A stretch of DNA of 64,000 nucleotides. Origin: a virus. Below, piece by piece: positions 23,164 to 39,296 of this stretch. The DNA is taken from the IMG/VR virus record IMGVR_UViG_3300022074_000013, positions 1-64,000 of that record; one strand, given 5' to 3'. How positions within the stretch are numbered: position 1 is the stretch's first letter; each line of letters opens with the position of its first letter. Both the position numbers and the translations under genes were made by a program. The notes beneath the pieces are model-generated. The model had not been told where the DNA came from. It saw only the letters and a program-made list of their open reading frames with translations, and ran no database searches.

Positions 23164-23403
23164 ATGTCAAAGTTCGCTTACGAAAAAGGACATGCAAAAG
23201 TAGAAGGACATTCGACTCTACTTAGAGAAGAAAGTTCAAGTGCGATTATTAATAATGATATCAACGGATATCAAGCTGCTATTAGAAGAAAAAAAGTTTT
23301 TCAAATACAGCGAGAGGAAATAAATACTTTAAAAGTAGAAATGACAGAGATAAAACAACTATTAGGTGAAATATTAGAGAGAACAAATGGCAAAAACGAT
23401 TGA
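23164..23403 (+). CDS. Small conserved coiled-coil protein
   Basis: KVEGHSTLLREESSSAIIN...EINTLKVEMTEIKQLL; typical gene after the VrlC-like protein. Confidence 0.7.
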   Translation: MSKFAYEKGHAKVEGHSTLLREESSSAIINNDINGYQAAIRRKKVFQIQREEINTLKVEMTEIKQLLGEILERTNGKND

Positions 23404-24976
23404 CCAATTTAGTACGTTAGAAAACTTTAGAACTCGTTACAACGATTTAGCAAATGACGTTGGGGATATCTCTGGCTTAAGAACAGACGTTACAGGAAAC
23501 CTAATAGACGCAATCAATAGTATAGAAGATAAAACATTCTTCTATCAAGAGTTTCTTTATACTGCGACCAGTGGACAAACTGCATTTACAGGAAATGACG
23601 CATTTAGTAATGACCTAGTATTCAAGAAAGATAGAATACAGGTTTATAAAAATGGTGCATTGTTAAGAGTTGGTGACGACTATGTTTTAGCAAGTCAACA
23701 ATCAGACGGAACATTCAAACAGATTACACTTATTTCAGGTGCTACCACAGGTGATAAAATCGCAATCCATGCCTTTACTGGTTCATTCTTAACAGTTCAA
23801 GGTGGTGGTGTCGGTGGTAGTTCTCTATTTACAGAAACTGCAAACAATACAATCTTTAACCATAATAGTAATGGTATAGTATTAAACGCAACCAATACTC
23901 CTTCTATCACTTCATTAGATACTGGTATAAACATTCAGTTAGAAGGTGTAACTAAAGTTGACGGTAATCTATCAGTTGATACTGGTCATACATTTACTGC
24001 TCCAACAATTACAGACGGAACAGGAACATTTACTGGTGGTAATGGTACTGGTTGGACAAGTATAACTTCTACTTCGTTTGCTGGTAACTTAACAGGTAAC
24101 GTTGCAGGTGATACTACAGGAACACACATTGGGCCGTTGAGTTCAAGTTCAGGTAATATTCAAGTTAATTCAGCAACATACATAACAGAATTTAGAGGTG
24201 GTGGTTCAACCGAAGGACAGATTAGACTTAACTGTCATGTTAACTCTCATGGTCAAACTATTAGACCTCAACCACATAGTGAAGGTGTTACAAATACATT
24301 AACACTTCCTGCAGGTGGTGACCAAGAATTAGTTGGTACAACTGATACTCAGACTTTAACAAATAAAACTATTACAGGTACATTTACAGGAACTTTAACA
24401 GGTACAACTTCTGATATTTCTAATCATAGTATTACAGGATTGAGTGACGTTGGTGGAAGTGCCCCAAGTGACGGACAGATACTTGTTTATAGTTCAAGTA
24501 ATAGCAGATACGAAGCTACAGACCAAAATACTTCTGACAGTGTGACAGAAGGTTCAAGTAATTTATATTTTACAAACGAAAGAGTTGACGATAGAGTTAA
24601 TGCACTGATAGTTGGTGGAACAGGTATAGCAACTGTATATGACGATGCAAGTAACACATTAACAATTAATGGTTCTGCTCAATACGGTAATGAAGATGTC
24701 CTAGATTTCTTAGGTGGCGGTGGACTAGTAGGTGGAAATGGTATAGATTTAACTTATAATGATTCCGCTAATACATTAACCATTCACAGTGATATTGAAG
24801 GTGGTGCTGGTATGCTTGCAACTACAGAAGCTACAGGAGAAAACACCATAAATATCGGCGCAGGTAAAGGTATAAAAGTCAATGCAGATGATGTGCAAAT
24901 TGACTACGAAGTAACTAACTCAGCTCCAGGCTCAGTTGGTTCAACTTCTGACGGTCACCTTTGGTTTGTGATATAG
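23387..24976 (+). CDS. Tail fibre / whisker-like protein
   Basis: N-terminal TLENFRTRYN coiled coil, G/T/S-rich shaft, TEGSSNLYFTNERVDDRV module, C-terminal APGS..DGHLWFVI. Confidence 0.7.
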   Translation: MAKTIDQFSTLENFRTRYNDLANDVGDISGLRTDVTGNLIDAINSIEDKTFFYQEFLYTATSGQTAFTGNDAFSNDLVFKKDRIQVYKNGALLRVGDDYVLASQQSDGTFKQITLISGATTGDKIAIHAFTGSFLTVQGGGVGGSSLFTETANNTIFNHNSNGIVLNATNTPSITSLDTGINIQLEGVTKVDGNLSVDTGHTFTAPTITDGTGTFTGGNGTGWTSITSTSFAGNLTGNVAGDTTGTHIGPLSSSSGNIQVNSATYITEFRGGGSTEGQIRLNCHVNSHGQTIRPQPHSEGVTNTLTLPAGGDQELVGTTDTQTLTNKTITGTFTGTLTGTTSDISNHSITGLSDVGGSAPSDGQILVYSSSNSRYEATDQNTSDSVTEGSSNLYFTNERVDDRVNALIVGGTGIATVYDDASNTLTINGSAQYGNEDVLDFLGGGGLVGGNGIDLTYNDSANTLTIHSDIEGGAGMLATTEATGENTINIGAGKGIKVNADDVQIDYEVTNSAPGSVGSTSDGHLWFVI

Positions 24977-24993: not shown

Positions 24994-26406
24994 ATGTCAG
25001 ACGAAATATATATAAACACCAAGAACACTCCGCATAGTCAACTAGGACAATTAGGTAGTTCAGGCAATTTTCAACAACCGTATCAAGGTCAAGCAGCTGT
25101 TACGGGTACTTTGCAGGCACAAAGAGCTGTAACTGGTCAAACTCCGACTACTTATCAGGCAAGATATCCATTTACTTACCAAGCAAACGCACGTGGAAGA
25201 TATCCATATCCTGCAAACTCTCAGACGCCATATCCTGCTTCAGCACAAGGACAATATCCATTTACTTATCCTGCGATAGGACAAAATCCCTATACGTTTG
25301 AATATATCGCAAGATATCCATTCGCTTATCAAGCAAGGTATCCGTATCCTGCAAACTATACAGCACAGGGAAGATATCCTGCTAATGCAAGTGGTACATA
25401 TCCTTATCAACAAAATTATCAAATAGCATATACTTTTCCGTATACCTATAGCGCCCGTAGACCTAGTCCTGCTAACCACCGTGGTACATATCCATATTCA
25501 GCGAGGACACAGGTAGTCAATAGGGCAAGATATCCGTTTACTACATCTACTCCCCTTTTTGGGCCTCACGGATATCAAGTTCCATATCCGTTCTTTTTTA
25601 GTTTTGACCCTAAAGACCCAGGCACAAATGCCCAAGGTCGAAGGCCTGCTAATAGACAAGGATATTATCAAGGGTCACAGAATGTAAGAGGTCGTACACC
25701 TTCTATTGCCAATGGAAGAAGACCTGTAAATGGTACAACTCCTTGGCCAGAACCTGAATTGAATTCACAGTTTCCGATTCCTTATGCGTATCAACAGCCT
25801 TATTCGTTTACTCCAAGAACACAACAACCATATATTGCAACTGGAAGATATCCATTTACACAGCAAAGTCAACAACCTTATATTACCAATGGGCAGGGAC
25901 AGGGTAGTACACAACACCAAAAAAATGCTCAAGGGCCTTATCCATTCACTTATCAAGCAAGATATCCATACCCTGCAACTTACCAAGCAAGAGGAAGATA
26001 TCCTGCTAGTGCACGTGGTATGTATCCAGCTCAAGCAAATGGACAACAACCGTTTAGTTATCAAGCAAACGCACGTGGAAGATATCCATTCATTTATACT
26101 GCACGTCAGCCAGGCACTTATCAAGCACAGGGAAGGTATCCATTTACATATCCTGCAAATGCTAGAGGAAGATATCCTGCTAGTGCACAGAATCCATATC
26201 CGTTCCAGCAGAACTATCAACAAAATTATATTTTCCAACAACCATATTCTACAACTAGAAGTATTGGTGCAGCTGCCAAAGTTAAAGCGGTGTACTTGAA
26301 TGACGCTGGAACTTTAAGAAAATTACAAGAAGTATATGTAAATAATCAAGGAACACTAGAAAAAACTCACCAAACAGTTCCAGCAGCTCAATTTAGTAAA
26401 TCATAA
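24994..26406 (+). CDS. Tyr/Pro/Gln/Arg-rich mirror-repeat protein A (putative fibre-tip filament/adhesin)
   Basis: 470 aa built from YQARYPFT, ANARGRYP and QQNYQ motifs in mirror register; paralogue of 32779-34152. Confidence 0.7.
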   Translation: MSDEIYINTKNTPHSQLGQLGSSGNFQQPYQGQAAVTGTLQAQRAVTGQTPTTYQARYPFTYQANARGRYPYPANSQTPYPASAQGQYPFTYPAIGQNPYTFEYIARYPFAYQARYPYPANYTAQGRYPANASGTYPYQQNYQIAYTFPYTYSARRPSPANHRGTYPYSARTQVVNRARYPFTTSTPLFGPHGYQVPYPFFFSFDPKDPGTNAQGRRPANRQGYYQGSQNVRGRTPSIANGRRPVNGTTPWPEPELNSQFPIPYAYQQPYSFTPRTQQPYIATGRYPFTQQSQQPYITNGQGQGSTQHQKNAQGPYPFTYQARYPYPATYQARGRYPASARGMYPAQANGQQPFSYQANARGRYPFIYTARQPGTYQAQGRYPFTYPANARGRYPASAQNPYPFQQNYQQNYIFQQPYSTTRSIGAAAKVKAVYLNDAGTLRKLQEVYVNNQGTLEKTHQTVPAAQFSKS

Positions 26407-26423: not shown

Positions 26424-26756
26424 ATGGCAATAATCGCAAACATATTCATAGACCAAGGTACAGACTTTGCTATACAAGTTGACCTAACAGATACAGTAGG
26501 TGATGTATTGAATCTCACTGGATTTACTGCGACTGCCCAATTAAGAAAAACATATGGTTCTTCAAATGCGGCCGCAACCTTTACATGTTCACATAATGGA
26601 GTTGGTGGAACAGTTACAATGACATTAACTGATACTATTACAACTGCTTTAGAAGCAGGAAGATATGTATATGATTTATTGATAACGGACAGTGGCGGTT
26701 CAATAAGTCGTGTCGTTGAAGGACAAGCAACAGTAACGCCAGGCGTAACGAGGTAA
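26424..26756 (+). CDS. Small Ig-like virion protein (BppU N-terminal-like)
   Basis: IFIDQGTDF..LTGFTATAQLRK..GRYVYDLLI..RVVEGQATVTPGVT; late promoter upstream. Confidence 0.7.
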   Translation: MAIIANIFIDQGTDFAIQVDLTDTVGDVLNLTGFTATAQLRKTYGSSNAAATFTCSHNGVGGTVTMTLTDTITTALEAGRYVYDLLITDSGGSISRVVEGQATVTPGVTR

Positions 26757-26758
26757 AC

Positions 26759-26965
26759 ATGGCAATTAAAGGAAAACTTAGAGGAACAGGAAATATCAAA
26801 GTACAAACTTTAAAAGTTGGAGTTACAGACGTTAATCTATCAGCAAAATCCATTCAGGAACTACAAGACGTAGAAGCTTCAGAAACTGATAAAGGGTATC
26901 TACAATACGACCAAACCACCGATAAGTGGAAAACTACCACAGTCATTGACGGTGGCACTTTCTAA
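26759..26965 (+). CDS. Small fibre-associated protein ending IDGGTF
   Basis: LQDV...GYLQYDQTTDKW fibre module followed by IDGGTF. Confidence 0.65.
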   Translation: MAIKGKLRGTGNIKVQTLKVGVTDVNLSAKSIQELQDVEASETDKGYLQYDQTTDKWKTTTVIDGGTF

Positions 26966-27094: not shown

Positions 27095-28528
27095 ATGGCA
27101 ACAGTAATTCAAATTAAAAGAACGACTGGTGTTTCTAGCCCTACAGTATCGGATTTAGCAGAAGCGGAATTGGCGTATGTCCAAGACCGTTCTAATGACG
27201 GTGCGTCCTCAAAGTTGTTCATTGAGTCTGTAGATTCAAGTTCAAACCCAGTTATACATGAAATTGGTGGTAAATTTTTTACTGATATCATAAAGGGTTC
27301 TACACCCACACCTGCTAACTTAATTGTTGGTAATGGTGCGACTGCTGGTGCAGAGATTCAACTTAGAGAAGATTCTGACAACGGTACAAACTATGTTGCT
27401 TTGAAATCGCCAAATGCGGTTGGTTCAAATGTAACATTTACACTGATGGGTGCAGACGGTTCTGCTAATCAGGTAATTGAAACCGATGGTTCAGGAAATT
27501 TAGGTTTTAGGACAGTAACATCAACAATTGACGGTGCAACAGACACTAATATCACTTCAGCAGCTGACGGTGCAATGTTACTGTATGATACAGGAACATC
27601 TAAGTGGATAGATAACGTAATGTCAGGTGACGCTACTATGGCGGACACTGGTGTTATGACTATCTCAAATGACGCAGTCACACTTGCTAAAATTGCAGAC
27701 GCAGTTATTATTACAGAATCAGAAGGTATCTCAAGTAATGATGTAGATACGGGGTTCCCAACAGCGGCTGCTGTTAAGGACTATGTTGATTCAAACATAA
27801 CTGCTCAAGATTTAGACGTTACAGGTGATTCAGGAACAGGTGCGGTAGACTTAGATTCTCAAGCGCTAAATATCGTAGGAACAACAAACGAGATTGTAAC
27901 TTCTGCGAGTGGACAAACAATCACAGTAGCTTTACCTGATGACGTAACTGTAGGAAATAGTCTAACAGTAACAGGTAACTTAACGGTTAACGGTACTACC
28001 ACAACTGTTAACTCAACAACTACAACAGTAGACGACCCAATCTTTACAGTTGGTGGAGACAGTGCTCCTGGCTCAGACGACAACAAAGACAGAGGTATCG
28101 AGTTTAGATACCATGACGGTTCTTCTGCTAAAATTGGTTTCTTTGGATATGACGATTCAGTAAATAAGTTTACGTTTATCTCAGACGCTACAAACACTTC
28201 CGAAGTATTTTCAGGTTCAGCAGGTAATGTTGCATTTGGAAACATGGAAGGTGTTGGTTTAGCATTAAGTGGTTCAATAACTTCTGTAGACGGTTCTGCA
28301 CCAACTAACGGTCAGATTCTAATGGGACATACTTCAAATGGAGATATGCAATTAGGAACAATCACTGCAGGTGAAGGTATTGACGTAACTAATGGTGCTG
28401 GTAGCATAACAATTACGGGAGAAGACGCAACAACGTCAAACAAAGGTATCGCAAGTTTTGCTAGTGCAAACTTTACAGTATCAAGTGGTGCAGTAACTAT
28501 CACTGGTATTGACGGTGGGACATTTTAA
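27095..28528 (+). CDS. Tail fibre protein
   Basis: MATVIQIKR..LAEAELAY N-terminus, GNLTVNGTTTTVNST..DNKDRGIEF module, ends IDGGTF. Confidence 0.75.
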   Translation: MATVIQIKRTTGVSSPTVSDLAEAELAYVQDRSNDGASSKLFIESVDSSSNPVIHEIGGKFFTDIIKGSTPTPANLIVGNGATAGAEIQLREDSDNGTNYVALKSPNAVGSNVTFTLMGADGSANQVIETDGSGNLGFRTVTSTIDGATDTNITSAADGAMLLYDTGTSKWIDNVMSGDATMADTGVMTISNDAVTLAKIADAVIITESEGISSNDVDTGFPTAAAVKDYVDSNITAQDLDVTGDSGTGAVDLDSQALNIVGTTNEIVTSASGQTITVALPDDVTVGNSLTVTGNLTVNGTTTTVNSTTTTVDDPIFTVGGDSAPGSDDNKDRGIEFRYHDGSSAKIGFFGYDDSVNKFTFISDATNTSEVFSGSAGNVAFGNMEGVGLALSGSITSVDGSAPTNGQILMGHTSNGDMQLGTITAGEGIDVTNGAGSITITGEDATTSNKGIASFASANFTVSSGAVTITGIDGGTF

Positions 28529-32778: not shown

Positions 32779-34152
32779 ATGGCATCAGGCTCACAGAAGG
32801 TTAAAACACCTACAGGCTGGAACGCAACTCAAGGTGCGTGGGTTAAAACGCCTGACGGTTGGCGTGCAGTAGAGCAAGTCTATATTAAAACGCCTGACGG
32901 GTGGAATAATGCTAGTGGTCAAGAAGATACACAACAACCTGCTCGAAGACCTGCAACTGGTAGACTTCAAGCACAAAGACCTGCAACTGGTCAATTACAG
33001 GCACAAAGACCTGCAATAGGAACAACACCTGCAAGAAGACCTGCGACTGGTAGACTTCAAGCACAAAGACCTGCATCAGGACAGTCGCCAAGCACTTATC
33101 AGGCGCAAGGAAGATATCCATATCCTGCCAATGCACAGGCACCTTATCCTGCTAATGGACAACAGCCAGGCACATATCCTGCTAACGCTCAGACGCCTGG
33201 CACATATCCTGCAAATGCTAGAGGAAGATATCCTGCTAACGGACAATCGCCAGGCACATATCCTGCTAATGCGAGACAGCCAGGAACTTATCAGGCAAGA
33301 TATCCATTTACTTATCCTGCTAACTCACAAAGTCCATTTACGTATCAGGCAAGATATCCATTTACATACCCTGCTAACTCACAGTCACCATTTACGTATC
33401 AGGCAAGATATCCGTTTATTGCACCTACAACATATCAGGCACCTACAACGTATCAGGCAAGATATCCATTTATTACACCTGCGAGACAACCTTTCACTTT
33501 CTCATTCATGAAAGACGGGATAGTTTATAACGGTCAGAATCCTTTTACTACAAGTGCAAGGGGTAGGTATCCTGCTAATACAACGTATCCTGCTAACACG
33601 AATACAAATGCACGTGGAAGATATCCTGCCAACGCAAGGCAGCCAGGAACTTATCAGAATAACGCAAGAGGAAGATACCCTGCTAATGCAAGACAGCCAG
33701 GCACATATCAAAACAATGCACGTGGAAGATATCCTGCGAACTCACAGTCACCATTTACTTATCAGACGCCTTATAGAACTCCGTTTACATATCAGGCAAG
33801 ATATCCATTTACATATCAAGCGTCTTATAGAATTCCGTCTACTTATCAGGCGTCTTATAGAACACCGTTTACGTATCAGGCAAGACAACCTAGCACGTAT
33901 CAAGCACAAGGAAGATATCCGTATCCTGCTAACGCACAGACATCATATAATTTCCAACAGAACTATCAGAACCCATACCCGTTCCAACAGAATTATCAAA
34001 ATCCGTATCCGTTCCAACAGAACTATCAGAACCCGTATCCGTTCCAACAGAACTATCAGAACCCGTACCCATACCAGCAGAACTATCAAAACCCTGTTCA
34101 ACGTTGGGACGGTGTGTTACAACAACAATGGCCTGCAACACCTATTTCGTAA
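32779..34152 (+). CDS. Tyr/Pro/Gln/Arg-rich mirror-repeat protein B (putative fibre-tip filament/adhesin)
   Basis: Three N-terminal (V/I)KTPxGW repeats, then about 390 aa of mirror-symmetric repeats about the central FSFMKDGIVY turn. Confidence 0.72.
   Translation: MASGSQKVKTPTGWNATQGAWVKTPDGWRAVEQVYIKTPDGWNNASGQEDTQQPARRPATGRLQAQRPATGQLQAQRPAIGTTPARRPATGRLQAQRPASGQSPSTYQAQGRYPYPANAQAPYPANGQQPGTYPANAQTPGTYPANARGRYPANGQSPGTYPANARQPGTYQARYPFTYPANSQSPFTYQARYPFTYPANSQSPFTYQARYPFIAPTTYQAPTTYQARYPFITPARQPFTFSFMKDGIVYNGQNPFTTSARGRYPANTTYPANTNTNARGRYPANARQPGTYQNNARGRYPANARQPGTYQNNARGRYPANSQSPFTYQTPYRTPFTYQARYPFTYQASYRIPSTYQASYRTPFTYQARQPSTYQAQGRYPYPANAQTSYNFQQNYQNPYPFQQNYQNPYPFQQNYQNPYPFQQNYQNPYPYQQNYQNPVQRWDGVLQQQWPATPIS
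32929..33078 (+). repeat. Five imperfect 30-bp repeats (xxQAQRPATG)
   Basis: agacctgcaactggt/agacttcaagcacaa units with period 30. Confidence 0.85.
33289..33396 (+). repeat. Two 54-bp repeats (YQARYPFTYPANSQSPFT)
   Basis: Direct inspection of DNA and protein. Confidence 0.85.
33607..33714 (+). repeat. Two 54-bp repeats (NARGRYPANARQPGTYQN)
   Basis: Direct inspection of DNA and protein. Confidence 0.85.
33952..34095 (+). repeat. Five near-perfect 30-bp tandem repeats (FQQNYQNPYP)
   Basis: ttccaacagaactatcagaacccgtatccg units. Confidence 0.9.
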
Positions 34153-36292: not shown

Positions 36293-37054
36293 GTGAACGT
36301 TGTCTACCACGACAAACCTTTCAGACTAACGAAAGATAATTATCCGTTAGGGGATACCTTTCATGTTATCGATAATTATTTGGCGGACGAATTACACCAC
36401 CATTGGGATAAGTCATTAGTCGCAAGTAACCTTTGGTCTAAAACTAATCAAGTTGCGTCCGATAGTAAAACAGGATTACCACATCATTCCTTTTGGGGTG
36501 GAACATTTTTTAGAGATGTTCCTAATCATGAACACGTAGATTGGTGTCAAGGAAATCAGATAAATCGTTCAGATACTTACTTTGCTTCATATTTTAATAC
36601 TAGAGTAATGAATGACTTTGGTTTTCGTTGGGTTGAGTTTGATTACATGGGTTTGAATTCACAAACTCAAGGACTAGACGGTACATGTCATAATGATTGT
36701 GCGCCTGAATGTGAGTGGAACATATCTTTTTTGTATTACTTAAATACATTTTGGAATCCTAAATGGGGCGGTGACTTAAGAGTGTATGATGAAAATATTG
36801 GTAGCGGTGTTGCAGAAGAAATGAACAAACACGAAATAGGAAGAATAGAATTTAAACCAAACAGATTACTTATGTTTGACGGAAGGATACCTCATGGTGC
36901 AGAAGCACCAAAACCTTCTGCAAGATATGTAGATAGACGTTCATGTGTATTGCGTGGTTCAGAAATAAGATTAGTACCTCAAGAAGAACAAAGAAAAGAA
37001 GTTGCACCAAGACAACTAAGATATCAGAGATATATGAGATATGCCGACAATTGA
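36293..37054 (+). CDS. 2OG-Fe(II) oxygenase (prolyl-4-hydroxylase-like)
   Basis: HND, SFLYYLNTFWNPKWGGDL, FKPNRLLMFDGRIPHGA, distal R; GTG start. Confidence 0.85.
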   Translation: MNVVYHDKPFRLTKDNYPLGDTFHVIDNYLADELHHHWDKSLVASNLWSKTNQVASDSKTGLPHHSFWGGTFFRDVPNHEHVDWCQGNQINRSDTYFASYFNTRVMNDFGFRWVEFDYMGLNSQTQGLDGTCHNDCAPECEWNISFLYYLNTFWNPKWGGDLRVYDENIGSGVAEEMNKHEIGRIEFKPNRLLMFDGRIPHGAEAPKPSARYVDRRSCVLRGSEIRLVPQEEQRKEVAPRQLRYQRYMRYADN

Positions 37055-37910: not shown

Positions 37911-38545
37911 AATACGAAGGATATACAGAGTTCGAGGCTAATAAAACTAAAGGTGATAACAATGTTGGAGTTGATATCGATAGTTTATACGAAGGACAAA
38001 CTAATGTTCAAATAGAAGGTTTTGATGTAGGTACAGACGCCAGTACACCTGCTTTTTATATTTGGAATTCTATGAACTGGCACGAAGATACTTATTGTGG
38101 TTGGAAAACTTTTAAAGGTGAACAAGACCATAATACACTGTCAACAGTATGGGAAACGAGGTGGTGGCATTCAATCCAACCAGCACCTTACAAGTATGTG
38201 GGTGGCCCTTATAGAGCTGCTGTTGCAGATTATACTTTTGGTGTGTTTGGATTATTCTTTTGTCAAAGGTTTGTTCCAATTACAGATTTGAGAGTCACTT
38301 ATGACAAAGCAATTAAAGTAGGTGATACTATAGAATGTGTAATAACAAACACTGTAATTGAAAATGACATTTTGAAACAAGAGTTAATTCAAAGAATTTA
38401 CGGTAGTGATGAAATTGTTGGTCGTGCTTGGGCAAGTCACTTCATGAAGAAGAAAGAAGACTATAAAGAAAAACAACAAGACTTAACTGAATTAAATGGT
38501 GACGGTAATCGTGACCGAGGAAGGTACGGGGAAGATGTCAGTTAG
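37907..38545 (+). CDS. Putative hotdog-fold (thioesterase/dehydratase-like) protein
   Basis: GGPYRAAVADYTFG helix followed by TDLRVTYDKAIKVGDTIECV. Confidence 0.5.
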   Translation: MKYEGYTEFEANKTKGDNNVGVDIDSLYEGQTNVQIEGFDVGTDASTPAFYIWNSMNWHEDTYCGWKTFKGEQDHNTLSTVWETRWWHSIQPAPYKYVGGPYRAAVADYTFGVFGLFFCQRFVPITDLRVTYDKAIKVGDTIECVITNTVIENDILKQELIQRIYGSDEIVGRAWASHFMKKKEDYKEKQQDLTELNGDGNRDRGRYGEDVS

Positions 38546-39296
38546 ATTACTGTTTCCACATTACGTATTTCAAAGAAATATGTTAGACCCAAATCTTGAC
38601 GAAAGTCAAGGATATGATTTGGAGTATAACGAAATGTTAGTTGCAGAAGTTGACGCAATGCGTAAGCGTGACCCTAAAGGTAGACTTGTATCTAATTCAC
38701 CTAACCCTGCTACAATGCATAGGTCGGGTTGGCAGTCTAATGACGGTTGTGAAAGTAGTCCAGTCTTTCAGAAATGTATGAATCGTATCAGTAAGTTTTT
38801 TTCTGACGAGGTTTTACCTTTTCATGGTATTCAAAATTCTAATGGTCTTAAAATGAGGCCAGGCAATTCATGGGCAAACATAAATGAAACTATGTCTTGG
38901 AATAGACCTCATACTCATAATGGTTGTTGGTATTCAGGTGTTTTATATCTAAAAGCAGACGGAGATGAAGGTAACTTTTCTGCAATTGATACAGACTCTA
39001 AAGTTCTGTCTATGTTTCCGCACCACCAAAGAGTTAGAACTAATTGGGACGTTCAACCTAGAACAGGAGATATTCATATATTTTCTAGTGGTTTAATGCA
39101 TATGGTTGAACCTAATATGACTGACAAAGAAAGATATAGCATATCGTTCAATATGGATTTACATGACGTGGTAGGCCCAACTGGATTCTTTCCTGATAAT
39201 GGTGCTGGTTACTTTGGTCAAGACTTTACTGTTGATGAATGGAATCCTGATGAATTTTCATTTAATTTAGACGAAAGAGGAAATCCAATACGTTAA
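38535..39296 (+). CDS. 2OG-Fe(II) oxygenase (TIGR02466-like)
   Basis: Likely start MSVRLLFP; GWQS, SWANIN..WNRPHTH..WYSGVLYL, FSSGLMHMVEPN..RYSISFN. Confidence 0.85.
   Translation: MSVRLLFPHYVFQRNMLDPNLDESQGYDLEYNEMLVAEVDAMRKRDPKGRLVSNSPNPATMHRSGWQSNDGCESSPVFQKCMNRISKFFSDEVLPFHGIQNSNGLKMRPGNSWANINETMSWNRPHTHNGCWYSGVLYLKADGDEGNFSAIDTDSKVLSMFPHHQRVRTNWDVQPRTGDIHIFSSGLMHMVEPNMTDKERYSISFNMDLHDVVGPTGFFPDNGAGYFGQDFTVDEWNPDEFSFNLDERGNPIR

Follow-up and report, generated by a model that had tools for sequence, protein, structure and literature searches.

A putative self-zipping fibre protein from an uncultured marine T4-like phage

Proteins in which a single chain runs out to a distal tip and folds back are known from a few systems. 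In the needle domain of the T4 long-tail-fibre tip protein gp37 (PDB 2XGF; Bartual et al., 2010), each chain runs to the tip and returns, so that motifs on the way out face motifs on the way back, and His-x-His motifs form iron sites (PMC6957217) in a six-stranded trimer over about 100 residues. In the stalk of streptococcal antigen I/II (A3VP1 structure; PMC3707005), an N-terminal repeat region pairs with a C-terminal one, an Ala-rich alpha-helix intertwining with a Pro-rich polyproline-II helix, giving a long thin stalk with a variable domain at the far end and the termini at the base. Heterodimeric coiled coils (leucine zippers) offer a further analogy, and only an analogy, in that partner and register are specified by a readable positional code, there helical and heptad-based, and cognate pairs are preferred over non-cognate ones. 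Finally, Gly opposite Tyr or Phe is probably a favourable cross-strand pair in antiparallel beta sheets ('aromatic rescue of glycine', Merkel and Regan, 1998), although as a local statistical preference and not as a rule applied over more than 100 consecutive rungs.

Here I describe a 470-residue protein (protein A) whose two repeat arms match each other residue by residue when read in opposite directions. It most likely folds back on itself into a thin stalk about 47 nm long, held in one register by an amino-acid pairing code for which I found no described precedent. Like the gp37 needle it belongs to a T4-like tail-fibre module, but it has only 5 His and no His-x-His arrangement, no sequence or profile similarity to gp37, arms of about 142 residues, and natural two-chain versions. 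Unlike antigen I/II, both of its arms have the same motif vocabulary and composition and a strict period of 2, which points to beta strands, and there is no homology between the two.

Genomic setting and family

The window, the whole 64,000-nucleotide stretch analysed, is part of a 94.8-kb IMG/VR virus record (IMGVR_UViG_3300022074_000013) estimated to be 52% complete. It carries a T4-like structural module with a tube cap, a gp5-like hub, gp6/gp7/gp8-like wedge proteins, a 2220-aa DUF4815 protein and several fibre genes, followed by terminase, sheath, portal and scaffold. The baseplate wedge protein is 36-39% identical to those of Pelagibacter, OM43 (Methylophilales) and cyanobacterial myophages of the Kyanoviridae. 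Gene A lies 17 nt after one fibre gene and 17 nt before an LtfC-like gene, whereas its paralogue B follows another fibre gene. Both proteins are about 12-14% each of Gln, Tyr and Pro, and 11-12% Ala. The features discussed below are as follows.

23387-24976 (+): upstream fibre gene (529 aa; phrog_697 match) ending in the conserved GHLWFVI motif, the first gene of a conserved cassette
24994-26406 (+): gene A, 470 aa, single-chain ('fused') member of an uncharacterised marine-phage family with conserved termini and a hypervariable Tyr/Pro/Gln-rich centre
25000-25017 (+): N-terminal strand (aa 3-8), conserved family-wide, inferred to join the C-terminal strands in a small base domain
25084-25509 (+): N-arm (aa 31-172), the outgoing strand of the inferred stem
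25510-25824 (+): distal tip (aa 173-277), not mirror-paired, containing two candidate turns (aa 200-213 = 25591-25632; aa 248-258 = 25735-25767)
25825-26250 (+): C-arm (aa 278-419), the returning strand of the inferred stem
26251-26403 (+): C-terminal base domain (aa 420-470), conserved in the fused form and in the C-proteins of split relatives
26424-26756 (+): downstream 110-aa LtfC-like beta-sandwich gene (phrog_1084 and phrog_3304), the last gene of the cassette
32779-34152 (+): paralogue B (457 aa), with arms 52-240 and 251-439 in register 491/493 and a tight Asp-Gly turn at 246-247

The family comprises 115 database relatives and 79 viral loci in IMG/VR, all from uncultured aquatic viruses. 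In a 19-sequence alignment, 36 columns are invariant, almost all of them at the two ends (including D3, I5, Y6, I7 and N8; N-terminal M-x-D-E-I-Y-I-N, C-terminal A-K-V-K-G and E-K-I-H-Q). The C-terminal fibre motif GHLWFV[IV] lies upstream of nearly every family member, and the LtfC-like gene follows the hairpin or C-protein gene in all loci that extend that far. A and its two closest relatives (loci L001 and L002; related loci are given L numbers) carry a 13-residue insertion between the conserved N-terminal strand and the conserved Gln-Gln-Pro-Tyr block (25018-25068, aa 9-25 of A), whereas in other members the N-terminal strand continues the stem register onto the first C-terminal strand. 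B and a split relative of it (L075:7560-7700) start instead with three Lys-Thr-Pro-x-Gly-Trp-type repeats (32779-32920, aa 1-47 of B) and share a Trp-rich C-terminal motif, so B belongs to a parallel family with a different base.

Searches for described relatives gave little. Pfam returned no hit for A, including the gp38-type adhesin family (PF05268), and PHROGs only phrog_13729, of unknown function, on aa 425-461. No PDB sequence matched the family profile at E <= 1, tblastn against 50,697 phage records with whole A, its C-terminal 56 aa and a relative's N-terminal 42 aa gave nothing credible, and a megablast of the region also found nothing. The cultured relatives with the LtfC-like gene (Melnitz, HTVC008M) have no Tyr/Pro hairpin gene upstream, and literature searches found no description of such a protein. 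Two consecutive genes further downstream (26759-26965 and 27095-28528) end in the same I-D-G-G-T-F motif, and a small gene of phage Melnitz-1 next to its LtfC-like gene (L085:6344-6616) ends similarly, which may represent a recurring fibre docking end. Long ORFs in other frames inside gene A (25784-26299 (+) and 25765-26241 (-), 171 and 158 aa) are most likely by-products of the repetitive codon content and not genes.

Mirrored register and pairing code

The original prediction held that six motif pairs of A face each other in a register of i+j about 452, with start positions summing to 445, and this is confirmed: every motif is in place in the translation of 24994-26403 and all six sums are 445, although those starts belong to windows of unequal length. 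With one uniform anchor, [R/Q/M]-Y-P, the positions are 57, 69, 87, 107, 115 and 127 in the first arm and 323, 335, 343, 363, 381 and 393 in the second. Six pairs sum to exactly 450 (gaps 12, 18, 20, 8, 12, mirrored), which is 452 on Tyr and 454 on Pro, and allowing Thr adds a seventh pair, 165/285. Shuffling the gaps gave a mean best register of 2.9 pairs and a maximum of 5 in 5000 shuffles. For all Tyr-Pro dipeptides there are 8 pairs at 452, again reached by 0 of 5000 shuffles. The predicted pairing of residues 40-47 with 405-412 also fits register 452. In B, the eleven gaps between its twelve Arg-Tyr-Pro motifs form a perfect palindrome (p = 6e-4). There is no DNA inverted repeat in gene A, so the symmetry is at the protein level.

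In register 450 (residues 47-171 against 279-403, 125 rungs) the facing pairs are Ala-Tyr 24, Pro-Gln 19, Gly-Tyr 16, Asn-Thr 10, Pro-Arg 9, Ala-Phe 7, Pro-Thr 5 and Arg-Arg 4. An aromatic faces a small residue (Ala/Gly) in 49 of the 52 rungs that contain an aromatic and never faces another aromatic, whereas neighbouring registers have 9-13 aromatic-aromatic clashes. B shows the same table at 491. In register 452 (493 in B) the pairs are Tyr-Tyr, Phe-Gly, Ala-Ala and Arg-Pro; this is the rule originally predicted, and it sorts the motifs into three types that pair 7/7 in A, 6/6 in B and 8/8 in the 61%-identical orthologue P0002, whose order differs. The most deterministic register is 450, with 452 as its neighbour. 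AF2 predicts the centre of B as a two-residue Asp-Gly hairpin with strands 240-245 and 248-253 (pLDDT about 86), and on that basis 493/452 would be the direct cross-strand register and 491/450 its diagonal neighbour, although both are contacts in a twisted ribbon and sequence alone cannot decide between them.

A log-odds matrix learned only from B finds register 450 in A at 160.5 bits, against 29.8 for the next register and a mean of 40 and maximum of 83 when the order of the C-arm units is shuffled. The reverse test, from A to B, finds 491 at 234.9 against 71.9. Furthermore, a gapped local alignment with a matrix that excludes A gives one ungapped stem, 31-172 against 278-419, at 149.5 bits, which extends further than the six motifs. 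Every Pro (18 in each arm) is at an odd position and every aromatic (29 in the N-arm, 28 in the C-arm) at an even one, whereas the tip is mixed. Together with anchor spacings that are all even (8, 12, 18, 20), this does not fit the period-3 repeat of collagen-like or polyproline-II fibres.

Complementarity in relatives and split forms

Orthologues of A show reciprocal swaps on facing positions: Tyr72:Ala378 becomes Ala:Tyr, Ala82:Tyr368 becomes Tyr:Ala, and Asn121:Thr329 becomes Thr:Asn. Columns anchored on the conserved blocks at the stem base covary at offsets 0 and +2 over 50 end pairs. The residue matrix learned on A and B does not find the register in distant relatives, so the code varies across the family and only code-free measures recover it there. 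In relatives of about 33% identity that use other repeat units, a code-free mutual-information scan over 121 registers peaks about 5 sd above the rest, with the same pair types. Pro spacing is mirror-symmetric at p < 0.05 in 12 of 22 distinct full-length members, several relatives not being individually significant, and in 17 of 22 the best register lies 31-57 residues short of the protein's length, a narrow and consistent placement. In several full-length relatives (L026, L047, L022, L015 and L008; hairpin ORFs at about 8001 onward) the stem continues after a register shift of one (for example 472 then 471), implying single-residue bulges that flip the phase.

The strongest evidence comes from split forms. 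In many loci the fibre gene is followed by two genes instead of one: an N-protein with the same N-terminus, an N-arm and a variable distal domain, and a C-protein with a C-arm and the same C-terminal domain, followed by the LtfC-like gene. Scoring N-arm against C-arm in antiparallel gives one dominant register in each of 26 pairs of A's family, at 54-261 bits against 25-96 for the second best, and the first residues of the C-protein face the last arm residue before the distal domain. In a 9 x 9 comparison each N-arm matched its own partner best, with cognate scores of 94-243 and non-cognate scores of 21-101. A B-like split pair (L075) scores 292.7 bits over 268 rungs. Thus, A and B are most likely fused versions of a two-chain duplex in which the arms pair with each other.

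In some split relatives (L075:7560-9871; L069:993-2753; also L066, L027 and L043) the N-protein ends in a Hint (intein/Hedgehog-type) domain (PF05203, PF14623, PF01079). In L075 this domain starts with Cys right after a Gly6 run at the end of the N-arm, exactly where the C-protein's N-terminus is predicted to lie, which suggests self-cleavage, or possibly zipper-templated joining, at the distal tip.

A candidate zipper stalk and its alternatives

At this point, the explanation I consider likely is that A is the single-chain version of a coded antiparallel 'zipper' stalk used by uncultured marine T4-like phages. The strict period of 2, the even unit lengths, the partial AF2 strands and the aromatic-Gly preference suggest a two-stranded beta ribbon of about 142 rungs, which at 0.33-0.34 nm per rung gives roughly 47-48 nm. 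It would have one face of one aromatic plus one small residue per rung, probably buried by association of several ribbons, and one polar face punctuated by Pro, which would sit only where NH groups point away from the partner strand. The irregular unit order makes the register unique and is inferred to act as a barcode against slippage. From synteny, the base (N-terminal strand plus C-terminal strands) is inferred to dock on the upstream fibre while the tip holds a host-facing element at a fixed distance; in split relatives the distal domain is variable, as receptor-binding domains are. Two 2OG-Fe(II) oxygenase genes (36293-37054 and 38496-39296; PF13640 and PF13759, above the Pfam cut-offs) lie a few genes downstream of Pro-rich paralogue B, within the structural module, and may modify Pro or other residues of the repeat proteins. 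Structure prediction was uninformative for the stem. AF2 of A with the 19-sequence alignment has a mean pLDDT of 33.6, and the ESM Atlas model has 0.39 with no informative neighbour (structural TM 0.16-0.21), as expected for either a disordered protein or a fold outside the training data. At low confidence AF2 nevertheless places strands at 27-46 and 404-423 (ends sum to 450), at 3-8, and at 430-437 and 440-443 (pLDDT about 55), while AF2 of B 150-341 resolved only the central turn.

The forked tip of the original prediction, a stem ending in two small hairpins centred near residues 206 and 253, is not supported and seems doubtful. A local mirror match of 176-190 against 225-239 (sum 415) scores 13.8 bits (p = 0.05), and by eye the RYP motif at 179 faces RTP at 234 with Phe opposite Gly. 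However, a second matrix gives other weak solutions (sums 395 and 485; p 0.02-0.05 across the searches), no second branch reached significance, gapped alignment does not extend pairing into 173-277, and the tips of 22 relatives show no recurrent two-hairpin pattern. Both marked sites are conserved acidic or Pro-Gly motifs across the family, and within the tip G215 is invariant and P209 and P236 nearly so, but the first site aligns with the motif that starts a globular distal domain in split relatives.

Although sequence constraints are identical for pairing within and between chains, and split relatives prove that the arms can work as separate chains, a domain-swapped antiparallel homodimer or higher oligomer appears unlikely: the covalent 105-residue linker favours intramolecular pairing, the tip is not self-complementary as the centre of an antiparallel homodimer would have to be, and B has an Asp-Gly turn exactly at its symmetry centre. 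Still less likely is that the arms do not touch but lie along a third, symmetric partner such as the upstream trimeric fibre. The gene is always next to a fibre gene and no direct contact has been demonstrated, yet big-faces-small complementarity, reciprocal swaps and cognate specificity of fast-evolving arm pairs next to a conserved fibre terminus are what direct contact predicts and a shared scaffold does not. Least likely is a disordered low-complexity repeat protein whose mirror pattern is a by-product of duplication or chance. Predicted confidence is indeed very low and the arms share directly duplicated DNA (for example 124 nt at 75% identity), but direct duplication predicts the same order and not the reversed one, the permutation, sliding-register, unit-shuffle and non-cognate controls all fail to reproduce the signal, and the pattern recurs in diverged relatives with other repeat units.

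More tentatively, and with somewhat less than even likelihood, marine T4-like phages may use a natural, readable pairing code for antiparallel strands (aromatic facing Ala/Gly, Pro facing Gln/Arg/Thr, Asn facing Thr) that specifies both partner and register over 140-270 residues, building thin fibres from one chain that zips onto itself or from two cognate chains; in the Hint-bearing split forms, the zipper may bring the chain ends together for self-processing or covalent joining at the distal tip. If the arms really pair as the sequences say, this is a protein analogue of nucleic-acid complementarity, in which the partner and register of a fibre more than 40 nm long could be read from the sequence, with hundreds of natural cognate pairs available as a training set. 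It would give designers a beta-strand pairing code with built-in protection against slippage. For phage biology, it would be a new structural principle for fibres, and it would also explain a widespread and so far unannotated gene family in abundant marine myoviruses.
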